From an uncultured Clostridia bacterium (lineage in GTDB: Bacteria; Bacillota; Clostridia; TANB77; CAG-508), in the NCBI GenBank assembly GCA_944388795.1, contig CALXKD010000003.1:10090-74089 (forward strand): a stretch of DNA of 64,000 nt, given 5' to 3'. A program made the translations under genes and the position numbers. Positions 1,330 to 7,586 of this stretch are shown piece after piece. Positions within the stretch are counted from its first letter, which is position 1; each line of letters starts with the position of its first letter. The notes under the pieces are model-generated. The model did not search any database. It was given only the letters and a program-made list of their open reading frames with translations, and had not been told where the DNA came from.

Positions 1330-1869
1330 ATGAAGAAATATTTAGTATTGATACTGATGATTATCTTTATAGCAATTCTAGGAGGAATCATATATGCAAA
1401 TAGTGAAAAAACAGTAAATGGAAAAGAAGAATTATATGAAAAAGTAGAAGAATATCTAGTTAGTCTAGAAGAACCAAATTATTTTCTTGAAAGTAAAGAT
1501 GCAGAGCCAAATTATGATATTAGTGATTTTAAAGTGTTTACAGATATAGAAAAATTAGGAATTAAAAAGAGAAAAAATCAATTTCATGTATATGTATGGG
1601 CTAAGGTGGAAAGCTACTATGTACAAGATGGTAAATTAGTATCAAATAGTGGAAGTGCAGCACCATATGAATTTATTATAGAAAATGATGTGGTTATAGA
1701 TTATAAAAAGCCAAAAGATGGTACAGAATATACAAGTTCTATAAAGGAAATATTTCCAAAAGATATAAGAGAAAAAATAGAACAATTAGATTTGGATAAT
1801 ACAGATATGAAAAAAGAAGTGGAAGAATATTATTCATATTTAGATGAGCAAGAAAATGAACAAATGTAA
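1330..1869 (+). CDS. Hypothetical membrane-anchored or secreted protein
   Basis: SD GGGGGAG lies upstream. It has an N-terminal hydrophobic segment (LVLILMIIFIAILGGIIYA) and an acidic C-terminus. No recognisable domain. Confidence 0.55.
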   Translation: MKKYLVLILMIIFIAILGGIIYANSEKTVNGKEELYEKVEEYLVSLEEPNYFLESKDAEPNYDISDFKVFTDIEKLGIKKRKNQFHVYVWAKVESYYVQDGKLVSNSGSAAPYEFIIENDVVIDYKKPKDGTEYTSSIKEIFPKDIREKIEQLDLDNTDMKKEVEEYYSYLDEQENEQM

Positions 1870-1891
1870 ACAAGTGAAGGAGAAAACATAC

Positions 1892-2554
1892 ATGCAAACA
1901 ATATTAATTGTAGAAGATGATATGGATATTCATAATCTTATAAAAGAACTATTAGAAAAACAAAAATACAAGGTCTTAGATAGTTATTCAGGAACAGAAG
2001 CACTAATGGTTTTAGAAAGAGAAAAGGCGGATTTGATTTTACTAGACTTAATGCTACCAGGATTAAATGGAGAAGAAATTGTAAAAAAAGTAAAAGACAT
2101 TCCGATGATTGTTATTAGTGCGAAAATATCACCAGAAGATAAAGTAAATGTCTTATTAAATGGAGCAAATGATTATATTACAAAGCCATTTTCAACAGAA
2201 GAATTGTTAGCAAGGATACAAGTACAGTTCAGAATAAAGGAATCTAAAAGAGAAAATAAAGAACTAACATATAAAGAGATGATATTAAGTGAAGAAAGGC
2301 AAGCAATAATAATGAAAGAAAAACAAGTTCATTTAACAAGAACGGAATTTGCCATTTTAAAACAGTTATTGCGAAATCCAAAACAAGTGGTAACAAAATC
2401 AAAACTGTTAGAGCTCATTAGTCATGATACATTAGACTGTGATGAAAATTCATTAAAAGTGCATATTAGTAATCTTCGAAAGAAAATTAGGCAACTAACA
2501 AAGGAGGAATATATTGAGTCTGTATGGGGAATTGGATTTAAAATGCATGAATAA
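1892..2554 (+). CDS. OmpR-family response regulator
   Basis: Receiver motifs ILIVEDD and LLDLMLPGLNG, plus a C-terminal winged helix ending VWGIGFKM. ATG 1892 has SD GAAGGAG at 1876-1882. The longer track ORF from 1844 overlaps the upstream gene. Confidence 0.9.
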   Translation: MQTILIVEDDMDIHNLIKELLEKQKYKVLDSYSGTEALMVLEREKADLILLDLMLPGLNGEEIVKKVKDIPMIVISAKISPEDKVNVLLNGANDYITKPFSTEELLARIQVQFRIKESKRENKELTYKEMILSEERQAIIMKEKQVHLTRTEFAILKQLLRNPKQVVTKSKLLELISHDTLDCDENSLKVHISNLRKKIRQLTKEEYIESVWGIGFKMHE

Positions 2555-2566
2555 AATTAACGAAAT

Positions 2567-2596
2567 CTTAACAAATTTCTTAACCGATTTCTTAAC
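2567..2596 (+). promoter_or_regulatory. Three direct TCTTAAC repeats, a candidate response-regulator operator
   Basis: TCTTAAC occurs at 2567-2573, 2578-2584 and 2590-2596 (11- and 12-bp phasing). A -10-like TATAGT follows at 2602-2607, just upstream of the ABC genes. Confidence 0.45.
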
Positions 2597-2633
2597 AATT
2601 TTATAGTAAAGTAAATAAGGAAAGGAGGAGGTT

Positions 2634-3548
2634 ATGGAATATATTTTAGAAACAAATCAGCTTGAAAAAACATATCATCATTTTAAAGCCATTAATGACC
2701 TAAATATGCACATAGGAAAAGGTGCTATTTATGGACTAATTGGAAAAAACGGAGCAGGAAAGACAACTTTAATTCGACTAATCTGTGGGTTGCAAAATCC
2801 GACAAAAGGAACTTATACAATTTATGGTATCCAAAATACGGATAAACGAATATTAGATGTAAGAAAACGAATGGGAGCTATTATAGAAACACCATCTATT
2901 CGATTAGATGCAACAGCAGAAGATAATTTAAAAGAACAATACAGAATTATGGGGTTACCTAGCTTTGATAATCTACAAGAAATTTTAAAATTAGTGGGAT
3001 TAATGGATACAGGAAAGAAAAAGGCAAAACATTTTTCTTTAGGGATGAAACAAAGACTAGGCATTGCTATTGCATTAGTAGGAAATCCAGATTTTTTAAT
3101 ACTGGATGAACCAATTAATGGTTTAGATCCAGAAGGAATTATTGAAATTAGAGAATTAATTTTAAAATTAAATAAGGAAAAAGGAATTACTTTTCTAATT
3201 TCTAGTCATTATTTAGATGAATTATCTAAAATTGCAACTGATTATGGATTTATTGAAAACGGACGTATGATTCAAGAAATTCCTAAAGAAGAGTTAGAAA
3301 AAAAGTGTAAGAAAAGACTAGAACTTGAAGTTAGTAATATAAAAGAATGTGTAAAGTATTTTGAAGAGAAACAATTTCCTTATGAAGTCATTTCAAACGA
3401 AAAAATTTATTTATATCATATAATGAATGTCACAGAATTAGCAATTGCTCTTTCTGAAAAGAATTGTATTATCAACAAATTTGAAGAAAAAGAAGAATCC
3501 CTTGAAAGTTATTATATCAACTTGATGGGAGGTGACAATCATGTATAA
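2634..3548 (+). CDS. ABC transporter ATP-binding protein (Bcr/Lan-type peptide-resistance family)
   Basis: Walker A GKNGAGKTT, signature LSLGMKQR, Walker B FLILDEP. Strong SD AGGAGGAGG. Confidence 0.9.
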   Translation: MEYILETNQLEKTYHHFKAINDLNMHIGKGAIYGLIGKNGAGKTTLIRLICGLQNPTKGTYTIYGIQNTDKRILDVRKRMGAIIETPSIRLDATAEDNLKEQYRIMGLPSFDNLQEILKLVGLMDTGKKKAKHFSLGMKQRLGIAIALVGNPDFLILDEPINGLDPEGIIEIRELILKLNKEKGITFLISSHYLDELSKIATDYGFIENGRMIQEIPKEELEKKCKKRLELEVSNIKECVKYFEEKQFPYEVISNEKIYLYHIMNVTELAIALSEKNCIINKFEEKEESLESYYINLMGGDNHV

Positions 3549-4401
3549 ATTGTTAAAAGCAAATTTCTTTAGATTAGTAAAAAACAAAATATTTTGGGGA
3601 ATTGTCATCATCACCATATTGATAGCAAGTTTTATATTATTGAATACGATTTTAAATCATCAAGGAGAGATAAAAGCAGGAATTGATAACATATTGATAA
3701 TGTATATCAATTTTATTGGGATTTTCATTGCCATGTTTACTAGCTTATTTGTAGGTACAGAATATTCAGATGGAGCTCTTAGAAATAAAATTGTGATAGG
3801 GCATAGTAGAAAACATATATATTTTGCAAATATGATGACAAGTATTGTTGTAGGAATATGTATAGAATTGATTTACATACTTATTATAACGATTGTAGGA
3901 ATTCCAACTCTTGGAACTTTACAAATGTCAACTGAAAAATTTTTATTTATTGTATTAGATATTATCTTTATTATTATTGCATATGCTTCTATTTTTACCT
4001 GTGTAACATTATTATGTTCAGATATTACAGTTTCAACAGTTGCTTGCATAATTTTGGTGCTTGTTATGCTGGTAGTAAGTATGGCATTATCTTCAACAGC
4101 AAATGCAACAAAATATTATGAAACGTATTCCCAAAATGAAAATGGAGAAATAGAAGTTTATCAAGAACCTAACCCTGATTATCCAGGAGATTTTAAGAAA
4201 AATGTAGCCAAAACAATTTTGTATTGTATTCCCACAGGACAGGCATCTCAAATTGTAAGTCAAGTAAATAAACAGCCTTTCCAAATGATAGATTATATGT
4301 CAGATAATGAATTAAAAATTGCTTTTCTATATTCATTAGGTATGACAGTATGTATAACAGGCATAGGAGTTTATTGTTTTAAACGAAAAGACTTGAAATA
4401 A
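3541..4401 (+). CDS. ABC-2-type transporter permease
   Basis: About six hydrophobic segments. ATG 3541 follows SD GGGAGGTGA and overlaps the ATPase stop by 8 nt, which suggests translational coupling. Confidence 0.75.
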   Translation: MYKLLKANFFRLVKNKIFWGIVIITILIASFILLNTILNHQGEIKAGIDNILIMYINFIGIFIAMFTSLFVGTEYSDGALRNKIVIGHSRKHIYFANMMTSIVVGICIELIYILIITIVGIPTLGTLQMSTEKFLFIVLDIIFIIIAYASIFTCVTLLCSDITVSTVACIILVLVMLVVSMALSSTANATKYYETYSQNENGEIEVYQEPNPDYPGDFKKNVAKTILYCIPTGQASQIVSQVNKQPFQMIDYMSDNELKIAFLYSLGMTVCITGIGVYCFKRKDLK

Positions 4402-4453
4402 GTGAATAAAGAGTTCAAATAAAGAATTTGGAAAACAAATAAAGCAAAAAAAG

Positions 4454-5347
4454 ATGAAGGGTTTGGTGAACATGTGGATTTATATCATTAGCATCATAAG
4501 TTTATGTATAGTATTGCTTTTTATAGCAATAAAACTATATCTCATAAAAAAATCTATAAAAGAAATTCGTGTTTCAATAAATAAAATTATAAAAGCAGAT
4601 ACAAATCAATTGTTAACCATATCTTCATCAGATAAAGAAATGAAAAAGTTAGCAAATGATTTAAACAAAGAATTACAGGATTTAAGAAAAGAAAAATTAC
4701 AATATCAAAATGGCAATCAAGAATTAAAGAGAATCATTACAAATATTTCTCATGATATGCGAACACCTCTTACAGCAATTAGCGGATATATCGATTTAAT
4801 GAAAGAAAATAAAGAAAAGCAAAAAGAATATATGAAAATCATAGAAAAAAAGACAGAAGAATTAACATTGCTTACAGACCAATTATTTGACTTTTCAAAA
4901 ACAATGGATATGGGTGTAGAAATGCAAAGAGAAAAATGCTGTATAAATGAAATTTTAGAGGAAACTTTGGCAAATATGTATCACTTTTTTAAAGAGAAAC
5001 AAATTGAACCAAAGCTTGAAATATGTACACAAAAAATATATAAAGACTTAGATAAACATAGCATTATTCGTGTATTTGAAAATATTTTGTCAAATGTTTG
5101 CAAATATAGTGACGGGGATTTTAAAGTAACATTAAATGAAAAAGGAATTATAACATTTTCGAATAAAGCAACTTCATTAGATGCAACAACCGTACAAAAA
5201 ATTTTTGATAGATATTTTACCGTTGAAAATGCTAAAAAATCTACGGGGCTAGGATTATCCATTAGTAAACAACTTGTGAAATTAAATGGAGGAAAAATAT
5301 CTGCTAAATATGTTAATGAGTATTTAATTATTCAAATAGAATTTTAA
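4454..5347 (+). CDS. Sensor histidine kinase without an obvious extracytoplasmic input domain
   Basis: One N-terminal hydrophobic segment, His box SHDMRTPLTAISGY, and an ATPase G-box GLGLSISKQLV. The start is uncertain (ATG 4454 or ATG 4472). Confidence 0.85.
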   Translation: MKGLVNMWIYIISIISLCIVLLFIAIKLYLIKKSIKEIRVSINKIIKADTNQLLTISSSDKEMKKLANDLNKELQDLRKEKLQYQNGNQELKRIITNISHDMRTPLTAISGYIDLMKENKEKQKEYMKIIEKKTEELTLLTDQLFDFSKTMDMGVEMQREKCCINEILEETLANMYHFFKEKQIEPKLEICTQKIYKDLDKHSIIRVFENILSNVCKYSDGDFKVTLNEKGIITFSNKATSLDATTVQKIFDRYFTVENAKKSTGLGLSISKQLVKLNGGKISAKYVNEYLIIQIEF

Positions 5348-5394
5348 TGTGTATATTTTTATGATAGAATAAAAGCAAAAATAAAAGGGAATAT

Positions 5395-6393
5395 ATGATA
5401 AAAATGAATAAAAAAGAACTAAAATCTATATTTGTAAATATCAAAGAAGAAAATGAAAAAGGATTAGAAGAATTGTATAGCAAATACCATAAAATGGTTT
5501 ATGGCATTGCTTTTTCAATTGTGAAAAATAAAGAAGATGCAGAAGATATCATGCAAATTGTTTTTACTAAAATACAAGAACTAGATAAAACGAAGTTACC
5601 ATCTGATAAAGAAATGACATGGTTATATACACTTACAAAAAATGAAGCATTAAATTATCTAAAAAAGAAAAAGGGAGAATTTTCATTAGATACCATATAT
5701 GAAATAGAAAATAAAAATAATGAGATAGATGAAAAAATAGATTGTATAGAATTTAACCGATTAATCAGTAAATTAAATAAGAAAGAACAGGAAATCATTT
5801 CTTTAAAAATAGTATCTAATTTTTCATTTCAAGAGATTAGTGAATTGCTAAATGAACCTGTTGGAACAGTGAAATGGAGATATTATAAAAGTTTACGCTC
5901 TATAAAACGAATGTTAGGAAGTTTCGCAATGTTTGTTATTACATTTACTATTGGAATGAAAGCTATACTTACAAATTTGAAAACGGGTGAAGAAGAACAA
6001 GGAACAATGCAATCAGAAGAAGATGTAAATGATGTCAGACAAGAGGTGGAAAATACAAGTAGGCAAGACAGTGATAGTATGAATGGTGGAGAGCTTCAAG
6101 AGGAAGAACAACATAAAGAAATGCAAGATATTATACAAGAGGAAAATACAACAAGAGAAGAAGATACGAATAAAGCGGAAGAAAATAGAATAGAACAAAA
6201 CATCACAATTGAGAATATAACATCACCAGAAAATGAAATAAAAGAAGAAACAATTGTAGAAGAAGAAATGGTAGAAAACCAGATTTCATATTTAGGAATA
6301 GGACTAATAGGGATATCTGTTATATTTCTCATCATGACAATTATTTTTTTCATAAAATACCAACTAAAAACAAAAAAGAAATTGTCTAAATAA
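5395..6393 (+). CDS. ECF-type sigma-70 family factor fused to a C-terminal membrane extension
   Basis: Region 2 (DAEDIMQIVFTKI) and region 4 (ISELLNEPVGTVKWRYYKSLRSIKRML) occupy about aa 1-172. A hydrophobic segment at aa 174-193 follows, then an acidic stretch of about 100 aa, a strongly hydrophobic segment at aa 298-320, and a basic tail. Confidence 0.8.
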   Translation: MIKMNKKELKSIFVNIKEENEKGLEELYSKYHKMVYGIAFSIVKNKEDAEDIMQIVFTKIQELDKTKLPSDKEMTWLYTLTKNEALNYLKKKKGEFSLDTIYEIENKNNEIDEKIDCIEFNRLISKLNKKEQEIISLKIVSNFSFQEISELLNEPVGTVKWRYYKSLRSIKRMLGSFAMFVITFTIGMKAILTNLKTGEEEQGTMQSEEDVNDVRQEVENTSRQDSDSMNGGELQEEEQHKEMQDIIQEENTTREEDTNKAEENRIEQNITIENITSPENEIKEETIVEEEMVENQISYLGIGLIGISVIFLIMTIIFFIKYQLKTKKKLSK

Positions 6394-6407
6394 TAGAGGT
6401 GGTATGA

Positions 6408-7538
6408 ATGAAAAAGAAAATTTTAATTATCATAAGTGTCATTATTACTTTATTAATCTTAGGATATGGAAGTATTGTATATATAGATTATCATAATGTG
6501 GTAAATGGAAAATTACCTATTCTTGCTAATTATTCTGAAGATGGAGGTTATCAAGGATTGGGGTACACAGTTGAAGTAACATATTATCCTGATACAGATG
6601 TAATTGAAGAAATGAAGATGAAACTTTTTGGCAAAACAATAGCAGCAATGGTGCAAGATATTGAGAAACAAAACGAAAATCAAGAGAATCCAGAGATTGT
6701 TACCATTAGCAACGGAAATATACAAAATGAAAATAAAATTGATGCGTTTATTGATAAAGGAGATAATCGTGAAGCAGATATTTTACAGATACATATAATT
6801 TCAAATGATAAAACAGATAATGTGACAGTAGAGTTTGTGCCAGGAACATATGATGAAATATCTTTTGAAGAAAGCAATATAGAAAGTGGAAATACAACAA
6901 ATAGACAAGTGCCAAGAAGTGTTACAACAGCAGAAGAATATGAGGAAGTCTATGGATATTATAAAATAACTGTAAATGGAGAAGAAACAGGAAGATATGA
7001 TGGTTTGCGCTGGCACATGAAAAGGGTAACAAAAGATAATACAGTACAAGTTATTATGGAACCATATGTAATAGAAGTAACAGAGTTTCCGGTTATTTGC
7101 GAATATTCCTTAGAAAGTTCAAATTATGAAAAGAAATTTGAATTAACATATATGGCTAGAAAGGATATGGGCGTAAAGAAAATTGCAGAAAAAAATCAAT
7201 TTGATAATTTGGATTTTGGAGTATATACGATTGCAGGAGATATTTCTATTACCATAGAAGGAGATATGGTATATTCTCTAGAAGATGCTTTAAGTCAAGG
7301 AGTGATTACAGTTCAAGACATATTAGAACAAGCAAAACAAGATGAGAAATATGGATTTTGTGAAGAAGCCTATTATAGTGATGGAGGAAGCACAGAATAT
7401 CGATATGCAGAATATACCATACTAAAATACAATACATTAGATGGTAATAAAGATTTGGTAATTGGTATGCAAGGAATGATTATAAATCAAGTAAATGCAA
7501 GTGGGTATAAAACGGAAGAGGAAGAAAATGTGGAATAG
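6408..7538 (+). CDS. Hypothetical membrane-anchored extracytoplasmic protein
   Basis: Starts 15 nt after the sigma gene with SD GAGGTGG. It has an N-terminal signal-anchor (ILIIISVIITLLILGYGSIVYI). No recognisable domain. Confidence 0.6.
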   Translation: MKKKILIIISVIITLLILGYGSIVYIDYHNVVNGKLPILANYSEDGGYQGLGYTVEVTYYPDTDVIEEMKMKLFGKTIAAMVQDIEKQNENQENPEIVTISNGNIQNENKIDAFIDKGDNREADILQIHIISNDKTDNVTVEFVPGTYDEISFEESNIESGNTTNRQVPRSVTTAEEYEEVYGYYKITVNGEETGRYDGLRWHMKRVTKDNTVQVIMEPYVIEVTEFPVICEYSLESSNYEKKFELTYMARKDMGVKKIAEKNQFDNLDFGVYTIAGDISITIEGDMVYSLEDALSQGVITVQDILEQAKQDEKYGFCEEAYYSDGGSTEYRYAEYTILKYNTLDGNKDLVIGMQGMIINQVNASGYKTEEEENVE

Positions 7539-7550
7539 ATAAAATCATAA

Positions 7551-7586
7551 AATTACTTTATACGAAAGTATAGAGTAATTTTTTTA
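7551..7586 (+). terminator. Rho-independent terminator
   Basis: AATTACTTTATAC / GTATAGAGTAATT stem (one G-U pair), GAAA loop, then a T-run. Confidence 0.7.

Follow-up and report, generated by a model that had tools for sequence, protein, structure and literature searches.

The subject of this analysis is a sigma factor gene in a 64,000-nucleotide stretch of DNA from an uncultured Clostridia bacterium (contig CALXKD010000003.1; the whole stretch is called the window below), together with the protein family to which its product belongs. The open reading frame (ORF) at 5395–6393 of the forward strand, on which the parts of its cassette all lie, is a single 332-codon frame running from a sigma core of the extracytoplasmic function (ECF) type through a C-terminal membrane extension to give a protein of 332 residues; its identity as a fused ECF sigma and two-transmembrane (TM) hairpin gene follows from the ORF, from Pfam and NCBIfam matches and from full-length homologues. 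From comparative sequence data we infer that this family is a fused-sigma system of a minimal kind, hairpin-tethered, lacking an anti-sigma domain, and with its cognate promoter carried by the final codons of the sigma gene. As a class, ECF sigma factors form the third pillar of signal transduction in bacteria, and mechanistic knowledge of them comes almost entirely from separate sigma/anti-sigma pairs.

The N-terminal half of the protein is an ordinary ECF core. Sigma region 2 (σ2; residues 27–93; 5473–5673) matches PF04542 (Sigma70_r2, E 2.9e-12), while sigma region 4 (σ4; residues 120–172; 5752–5910), whose C-terminal end holds the recognition helix, is delimited by the match to PF08281 (Sigma70_r4_2, residues 120–168, E 2.1e-8), by the end of the alignment with SigW and by a helix in an AlphaFold2 (AF2) model. 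Pfam detects these two domains and no other sigma domain, which is the composition of an ECF (group 4) factor, and the NCBIfam model TIGR02937 (sigma70-ECF) scores 76.1 bits against a cut-off of 42.9. None of the named ECF equivalogs in NCBIfam is reached, with the BldN family at 82.6 bits (cut-off 206), SigV at 73 (190) and SigW at 69 (209). The closest solved core is that of Bacillus subtilis SigW (5wuq, 187 residues; E 2.5e-13), and the other best relatives in the PDB, σE and SigH, are also ECF factors. The SigW alignment stops at residue 174 of the query, 3 residues short of the SigW end, so the sigma core is complete and ends where the first hydrophobic segment begins.

Beyond σ4 the extension has no Pfam domain, no cysteine, and no Cys-based or His anti-sigma motif. 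Hydrophobic segments were called by a Kyte-Doolittle (KD) scan of 19-mers. The first, TM1 (residues 174–193; 5914–5973), follows σ4 at a distance of no more than about 2 residues, without any linker, and is moderately hydrophobic (KD maximum 1.70). It is followed by a low-complexity acidic loop rich in E, Q, N and T (residues 194–297; 5974–6285), whose 104 residues include 28 Glu, 11 Asn and 10 Gln and carry a net charge of -26; from its charge and its low predicted local distance difference test (pLDDT) scores it is predicted to be extracytoplasmic and disordered. The strongly hydrophobic TM2 (residues 298–320; 6286–6354) has a KD maximum of 2.94 at residues 302–320 and is found family-wide, and the protein ends in a basic, Lys-rich tail, KYQLKTKKKLSK (6355–6390), the codons of which overlap the promoter-like motif described below. 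The cytoplasmic helix ends are flanked by positive charge, with KSLRSIKR ahead of TM1 and the basic tail past TM2; given these basic flanks and the acidic loop, the positive-inside rule favors a predicted topology with both termini in the cytoplasm (N-in/C-in) and the loop outside. The anatomy given in the initial annotation, namely the frame, the sigma core, the two hydrophobic segments, the acidic loop and the missing anti-sigma domain, was thus accurate.

The AF2 model of the fusion was built on an alignment of 58 sequences, and only its local features are usable. In it σ2 and σ4 are confident, the loop is disordered (pLDDT about 30) and TM2 forms a helix at residues 299–323. The last σ4 helix, which is the recognition helix, and TM1 form one uninterrupted helix at residues 156–201, with block-mean pLDDT of about 74–89 for residues 151–190, dropping to about 53 for 191–200. 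A different view of these segments would have TM1 act as an amphipathic or hydrophobic autoinhibitory helix lying on the core, as in ECF41 and ECF42, with the loop in the cytoplasm and TM2 serving as a tail anchor or a second inhibitor. Core-contacting regulatory C-terminal extensions are established in other ECF groups (PMC7826278), and the modest hydrophobicity of TM1 in the family (KD 1.5–2.5) and its lysine, invariant among close homologues, would suit such a role. AF2 shows no fold-back of TM1 onto the core, however, and the positive-inside rule speaks against the arrangement, as a 12-residue tail with 6 lysines would need to be translocated; TM2 is also very hydrophobic, with KD values up to 3.5 in the family, and the loop, being acidic and of varying length, is what one would expect of an exposed spacer. 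Autoinhibition by TM1 is accordingly judged very unlikely.

The fusion is conserved among homologues. A word-indexed search gave 1,663 matches, and the best 120 of these, inspected for length and coverage, are 47–99% identical to the window protein, nearly all 285–349 residues long and aligned over close to the full query. A HMMER search over 1.84 billion cluster representatives (50%-identity clusters) returned 153 clusters with E<1e-30. A hydrophobic segment stands at the TM1 position in about 125 of the 150 best representatives, and 113 of the best 150 share the whole layout of core, TM at about residues 170–190, loop, TM and short basic tail in a hydropathy scan. Among these 113 the loop varies from 9 to 219 residues (median 75), consists to 57% of E, D, Q, N, S and T and is net negative in 94; the median charge of the tail is +5, and only one has a CxxC in the extension. 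Within TM1, Gly187 is nearly invariant, while Gly175 and Lys189 are invariant only in an alignment of 21 sequences. A species-level scan, in which each species was represented by one genome (loci are numbered with L, genomes of relatives with G), placed the fusion in 64 loci of metagenome-assembled genomes (MAGs), all from uncultured gut Clostridia of chicken, rabbit, mouse and human; carriers include Clostridium sp. CAG:793 and Ca. Scatovivens faecipullorum.

These numbers also bear on the concern that the fusion is an artefact, caused by stop-codon loss, frameshifting or misassembly. A few cluster representatives comprise only the sigma or only the hairpin part (P0205, 181 residues; P0244, 158 residues), and they look like truncated gene calls. 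The same architecture recurs in hundreds of independent metagenome assemblies and in the 64 species-level MAGs at 39–99% identity, which makes an artefact negligibly probable; the stop or frameshift that the initial annotation had allowed for, splitting the sigma from a membrane protein, is excluded by the same continuous ORF in dozens of independent assemblies.

Of 19 genomes in the genus to which the window belongs, only 3 carry the fusion, and this patchy spread, with most genomes lacking the cassette, is consistent with gain and loss or with mobility. One congener (G005) has two paralogous sigma-hairpin cassettes (C4:7302–8165 and C1:11779–12651), 55% and 51% identical to the window protein. 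A distant subclade of fusions (P0249, P0252 and P0264–P0268) is made up of proteins of about 250 residues with a short loop and with tails in which LPTK, IPTK or KPTK replaces the usual ending in SK; these tails may reflect a different embedded DNA motif.

A further feature of the gene lies in its final codons. A bipartite motif resembling an ECF-type promoter (6359–6390) is composed of ACCAAC (6359–6364), a spacer of 19 nt, and GTCTAAA (6384–6390) preceded by T6383; in the family it has the form ACCAAC-N19-(C/T)GTCTAAATA, and its conservation runs through the stop codon, into TAATAG in the window. The last 19 sigma codons and the next 40 nt were aligned for 58 loci, giving the nucleotide consensus AAA-[T/C/A]AC-CAA-CTA-AAA-N9-AAA-NNG-TCT-AAA-TA[A/G]-TAGAAAGG, and codon use was counted on 43 non-redundant members. 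The eleventh codon before the stop ends in C in 42 of 43, compared with 13% of Tyr, His and Asn codons in gene bodies; at -9, Leu is encoded by CTA in 38 of 38 cases (15% of Leu codons in gene bodies), and the Ser codon at -2 is TCT in all 43 (23% of Ser codons). At -3 the third base is G in 39 of 43 while the amino acid varies among L, T, A, S and M, with ACG, GCG and TCG each accounting for 3–6% of their families. Amino acid swaps in the tail (Y/H/N; L/Q/P) leave ACCAAC unchanged, and the spacing between the two blocks is constant at 19 nt in more than 55 loci. The sigma tail is therefore conserved as a DNA element, synonymous sites included. The idea that the tail KYQLKxKKKLSK acts at the protein level, as a degron or a recognition motif, was considered and largely set aside, as synonymous sites are invariant and replacements preserve the DNA.

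The form of this element is that of an ECF promoter, with an AAC-containing -35, a (C)GTC-type -10, fixed spacing and association with the cognate locus. The ECF classification gives GAACTTT-Xn-GTCT as the predicted promoter of ECF02, and a CGTC or GTC -10 for about 20 groups. The motif occurs once in the 64-kb window, where 0.01 occurrences would be expected, and once in the whole 1.67-Mb assembly; a motif search for further regulon members thus found none, this being a single site in a 74%-complete genome. Among 31 related genomes, the exact motif is present in the fusion carriers G000 (the window genome), G003 and G005 and in two more, G029 and G021. The first of these two, found by its motif match, proved to carry the fusion and an anchored partner, while the match in G021, which has a GC-rich spacer, looks like chance. 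By its distribution the motif is a dedicated, one-to-one companion of the sigma family, situated 5' of the gene for an anchored protein. The tail element appears to be an ECF-type promoter for the downstream (+1) gene, so that the last codons of the sigma gene would double as a promoter.

Three rearranged loci separate the motif from its coding role. In L037 the gene order is inverted, with the anchored-protein gene first and the sigma gene second; here the motif (3722–3760) is non-coding and stands immediately ahead of the anchored-protein gene, where the same leader is kept, and the sigma tail has lost its -10 block. In L053 there is a second copy of the motif (4890–4930), also non-coding, which precedes the sigma gene by about 75 nt and follows a terminator hairpin, and it is possible that this cassette is autoregulated. 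That non-coding copies survive rearrangement in these two loci supports the promoter reading. In L071 (5800–6520) an insertion of about 630 bp with a small ORF (about 130 residues) splits the sigma tail, and on both sides of it lies a 49-bp direct repeat of the tail/promoter region; an intact motif remains ahead of the +1 gene, and the sigma has a new C-terminus ending in KYQLKRRKLL.

The 3'-end element might instead not be the promoter of this sigma at all, being either an mRNA element, in which UACCA pairs with UGGUA of the ribosome-binding site (RBS) and couples translation, or the site of another regulator. In the window AUACCA (6357–6362) can pair with UGGUAU (6400–6405), with a minimum free energy of -11.5 kcal/mol (z = -1.9), and GGTGGTAT, which precedes the start codon, shows a conservation beyond what a simple RBS would call for. 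Against this, RNAalifold on 34 sequences gave neither a consensus structure (-0.34 kcal/mol) nor compensatory changes, and the GTCTAAATA block is unpaired in any structure. The rigid two-block form with its 19-nt spacing also resembles an ECF -35/-10 pair, the non-coding copies persist, and comparison of the family loci shows no other regulator conserved in the neighborhood of the sigma gene. Taken together, an origin of the element outside this sigma's own regulation seems unlikely. A structured RNA or translational-coupling element in particular was rejected, given that the alignment shows neither a consensus structure nor covariation, that the fold predicted for the window is weak, and that Rfam gave no match.

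The +1 gene (6408–7538) begins 14 nt past the sigma stop codon and is preceded by the RBS GAGGTGG (6396–6402), read from the sequence; across loci, AGGTGGTAT is conserved ahead of the +1 start codon. As judged from its TM segment, its homologues and its AF2 model, it encodes an N-terminally anchored extracytoplasmic protein of three modules and 376 residues, from an uncharacterized conserved family. The TM segment is at residues 5–23 (KD 2.68) and leaves only about 4 residues in the cytoplasm, so the protein cannot be a canonical anti-sigma factor; no anti-sigma domain was found anywhere in the cassette. In about 60 of 63 loci the sigma gene is followed, after 12–25 nt, by a gene for an anchored protein with its TM at residues of about 5–28; single-linkage BLAST joins the +1 partners of 60 of 63 loci in a single network. 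The window protein itself belongs to no Pfam or NCBIfam family, and its AF2 model (mean pLDDT 81), which is mostly β, gave no significant match when compared with the PDB by Foldseek (best E 0.014, TM 0.15). Full-length homologues at 45–92% identity occur in about 23 species-level loci. In a module survey the N-terminal module recurs in about 23 loci, the middle one in about 26 and the C-terminal one in about 45. The gene had been called an ORFan in the initial annotation, a label that these homologues do not allow, whereas the proposal that it belongs to the same circuit as the sigma gains from its conservation as a partner and from the ECF-type promoter-like motif that precedes it in the sigma 3' end.

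Other members of the +1 family carry DUF4362, Big_14 or a serpin-like module of about 320 residues. In 17 of 64 loci (within L041–L082) the last of these is part of an anchored protein encoded by the +1 or +2 gene, for example at L063 5905–6987, and in L079 such proteins lie on both sides of the sigma gene (4010–4978 and 5880–6971). The assignment rests on a sub-threshold Pfam score (24 bits, against a gathering score of 27) and a C-terminal signature, 'F.IDDTFAIFL…PYFAGKI', and sequence and profile searches of the PDB gave no match; the serpin assignment is weak, and the module is called serpin-like for this reason.

A model that brings these observations together would have three parts to the cassette: the sigma-hairpin gene, a promoter in its last 12 codons, and at least one co-oriented gene for an anchored surface protein. 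The sigma would be made from a housekeeping-type extended -10 promoter and inserted in the membrane as an N-in/C-in hairpin. Because no linker separates σ4 from TM1, the tethered form would be inactive, its -35-binding helix and its β-flap-binding surface being pressed against the bilayer. An extracytoplasmic event, acting on the loop or through the +1 protein, would then expose TM1 to an intramembrane site-2 protease of the RasP/M50 type, the only candidate sensors being the +1 ectodomains and the loop, which is predicted to be exposed and disordered; the conserved glycines of TM1 could provide the helix flexibility that site-2 proteases need. Cleavage within or near TM1 would free a sigma core of about 175 residues, which would take RNA polymerase to the embedded promoter and lift expression of the anchored protein or proteins above the level of read-through. 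This full model, from a membrane-held inactive sigma through proteolytic release to transcription of the +1 gene from the embedded promoter, is considered somewhat more probable than its negation.

A number of points weigh against it. TM1, with its KD peak at about residues 173–192, is only moderately hydrophobic, and the AF2 model of the fusion is of low overall confidence (mean pLDDT 64, predicted TM-score (pTM) 0.31). The window genome has three M50 site-2 protease loci, but such proteases are present in all 14 of 14 control genomes, so their presence is little informative. The RasP-like M50 gene of the window genome (G000 C16:19570–20749) is split into two overlapping frames of 84 and 356 residues, which suggests a frameshift or an assembly error in the MAG. 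Read-through from the sigma's own promoter reaches the +1 gene, and the embedded promoter is not strictly required. Finally, the gap of 18 nt from AAC to CGTC is 1–2 nt longer than in σW and σE promoters.

The sigma could alternatively be active while anchored, in the manner of ToxR or CadC, with RNA polymerase recruited uncleaved at the membrane and control exerted by conformation or by the +1 protein. The target promoter lies inside a unit whose products enter the membrane, so the DNA could stay nearby, and the hairpin and tail are conserved, which a mere degradable tether would not need. The conservation of the tail is, however, largely explained at the DNA level, and with no linker between σ4 and TM1 both the β-flap and the -35 DNA would need to dock against the bilayer; membrane-bound DNA-binding regulators generally possess a flexible spacer. 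Activity in the anchored state is thus regarded as quite unlikely. It had been proposed in the initial annotation that the sigma is its own tether and that it either requires proteolytic release or acts at the membrane. The first part fits the anatomy and the lack of an anti-sigma domain in the cassette, and of the two options in the second, activity at the membrane is disfavored by the predicted continuous helix at residues 156–201, which argues for sequestration and release.

A more specific version of the release model takes the loop itself as the sensor, either as bait for proteases of the host or of competitors or as a site that binds cationic host-defense molecules. Clipping or remodeling of the loop would turn the protein into a substrate for a site-2 protease and release the sigma, and anchored countermeasures would be expressed from the promoter in the sigma's own codons; under the protease-alarm version, these countermeasures would include serpin-like inhibitors in about a quarter of species. 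This proposal is offered tentatively and is thought more likely to be wrong than right by a wide measure.

Several known systems share parts of this design. The precedent for an ECF factor tethered covalently and set free by regulated proteolysis is IutY of Pseudomonas putida (ECF243), a hybrid of sigma and anti-sigma that Prc and RseP activate (PMC5411451; PMC8999054). As in the window family, sigma and membrane tether form one polypeptide, and its C-terminal part is removed by regulated intramembrane proteolysis, as is proposed here. IutY differs in having a FecR-type anti-sigma domain, a single TM, a folded periplasmic sensor and an outer-membrane receptor in a Gram-negative host, whereas the window family, from Clostridia, has no anti-sigma domain, no linker, two TM helices and a disordered acidic loop. 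The actinobacterial groups ECF48, ECF52 and ECF53 (for example SCO4117) have a zinc-finger anti-sigma domain and one or two TM helices as a C-terminal extension (PMC8999054). They resemble the window family in the membrane-spanning extension, the predicted proteolytic release and the lack of a separate anti-sigma gene; they are set apart by the ZAS-type domain and by large Pro-rich or carbohydrate-binding ectodomains, while the window family has neither a Cys/His motif nor a folded ectodomain. The window protein therefore shares with the fused sigma/anti-sigma hybrids a membrane-spanning extension without a separate anti-sigma gene, but not an anti-sigma domain ahead of the TM.

Closer in outline are ECF262, from Clostridiales, in the same class, and ECF263, both known from bioinformatics only, which have TM-containing C-terminal extensions and no anti-sigma factor. 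An ECF262s5 example from Ruminococcus albus, the single ECF262 sequence compared, aligns with the window protein only over σ2 (28% identity over 103 residues). It differs in having a cytoplasmic spacer of about 40 residues, a single TM and a long ectodomain, and for ECF262 there is no record of a predicted promoter. The ECF263 proteins are polytopic and come from Proteobacteria. Neither group has been described with a hairpin, such a tail, an embedded promoter or a conserved +1 partner. ECF234, described as restricted to Paenibacillus and free of extensions, has a two-component and ABC transporter context without an anti-sigma factor; such a context is found in only 9 of 64 loci of the present family and does not place it in that group.

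Among the Firmicutes, σW-RsiW and σV-RsiV are ECF/anti-sigma pairs released by RasP. The likeness here lies in the SigW-like core, in the logic proposed for the window family, of membrane sequestration followed by site-1 and site-2 cleavage, and in a partner co-transcribed downstream. In those pairs sequestration is non-covalent, by a separate protein, and the autoregulating promoter is upstream of the sigma gene, whereas in the window family the tether is covalent and the putative promoter is at the 3' end. The pro-σK and pro-σE proteins of Bacillus subtilis are, as is proposed for the window protein, inactive, membrane-associated sigma precursors activated by proteolysis, in the case of pro-σK by the M50 protease SpoIVFB. 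They are group-3 sporulation sigmas with short N-terminal pro-sequences rather than C-terminally hairpinned ECF factors. A literature search on membrane-bound, anchored or tethered sigma factors yielded nothing on this hairpin family, and the family motifs do not appear in those portions of the ECF classification supplement that were covered.

If the model is correct, the family would represent a minimal one-protein transmembrane signaling device, consisting of a hairpin without any folded sensor and widespread in uncultured gut Clostridia. For synthetic biology it could also provide a switch that is compact and probably orthogonal, with sigma, tether and cognate promoter within about 1 kb. 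The tail would be a clear case of a coding-embedded promoter dictating the C-terminus of a protein, and a caution against reading such conservation as a protein motif. Moreover, the cassette would offer a handle on surface sensing by small-genome gut Clostridia, with surface-anchored serpin-like proteins among the outputs.

The sigma gene itself appears to be expressed from a promoter of the housekeeping type. A σA-type extended -10 promoter-like element, TGATAGAAT (TG-n-TAGAAT; 5362–5370), can be read 33 nt ahead of the sigma start codon; the consensus promoter scan requires a -35 hexamer, and the element is therefore absent from its list. In 39 of 57 family loci the sequence TGNTANNNT is found no more than 150 nt ahead of the sigma gene, most often 30–45 nt from the ATG; among randomly drawn 135-nt windows of those loci, 24% contain it. 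No ECF-like motif was found upstream of the window sigma gene. This arrangement suggests that expression of the sigma is constitutive and σA-dependent, as for a sensor restrained post-translationally.

Further upstream, 1844–5347 of the window encodes an OmpR-type response regulator, an ABC ATPase, an ABC-2 permease and a small histidine kinase that almost lacks a sensor domain, a set that resembles BceRS/ABC modules. There is no terminator between the kinase gene and the sigma gene, and read-through into the sigma cassette is possible in the window species. The initial annotation had suggested that this module may belong to the same circuit. It adjoins the sigma gene in 9 of 64 species-level loci, all of them close relatives that share the window's downstream OGG gene; three loci have that OGG gene without the module, and more distant family members have unrelated gene contexts. 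A functional link to the module as a trait of the family was ruled out on this distribution, and the module is, as far as gene order can tell, a neighbor by descent rather than a family partner. At the other end, an AT-rich hairpin (ATTACTTTATAC / GTATAGAGTAAT) followed by a T-run was read from the sequence at 7552–7585; it was not called by the terminator scan, which requires at least three G-C pairs, and it is likely to be the terminator of the cassette.

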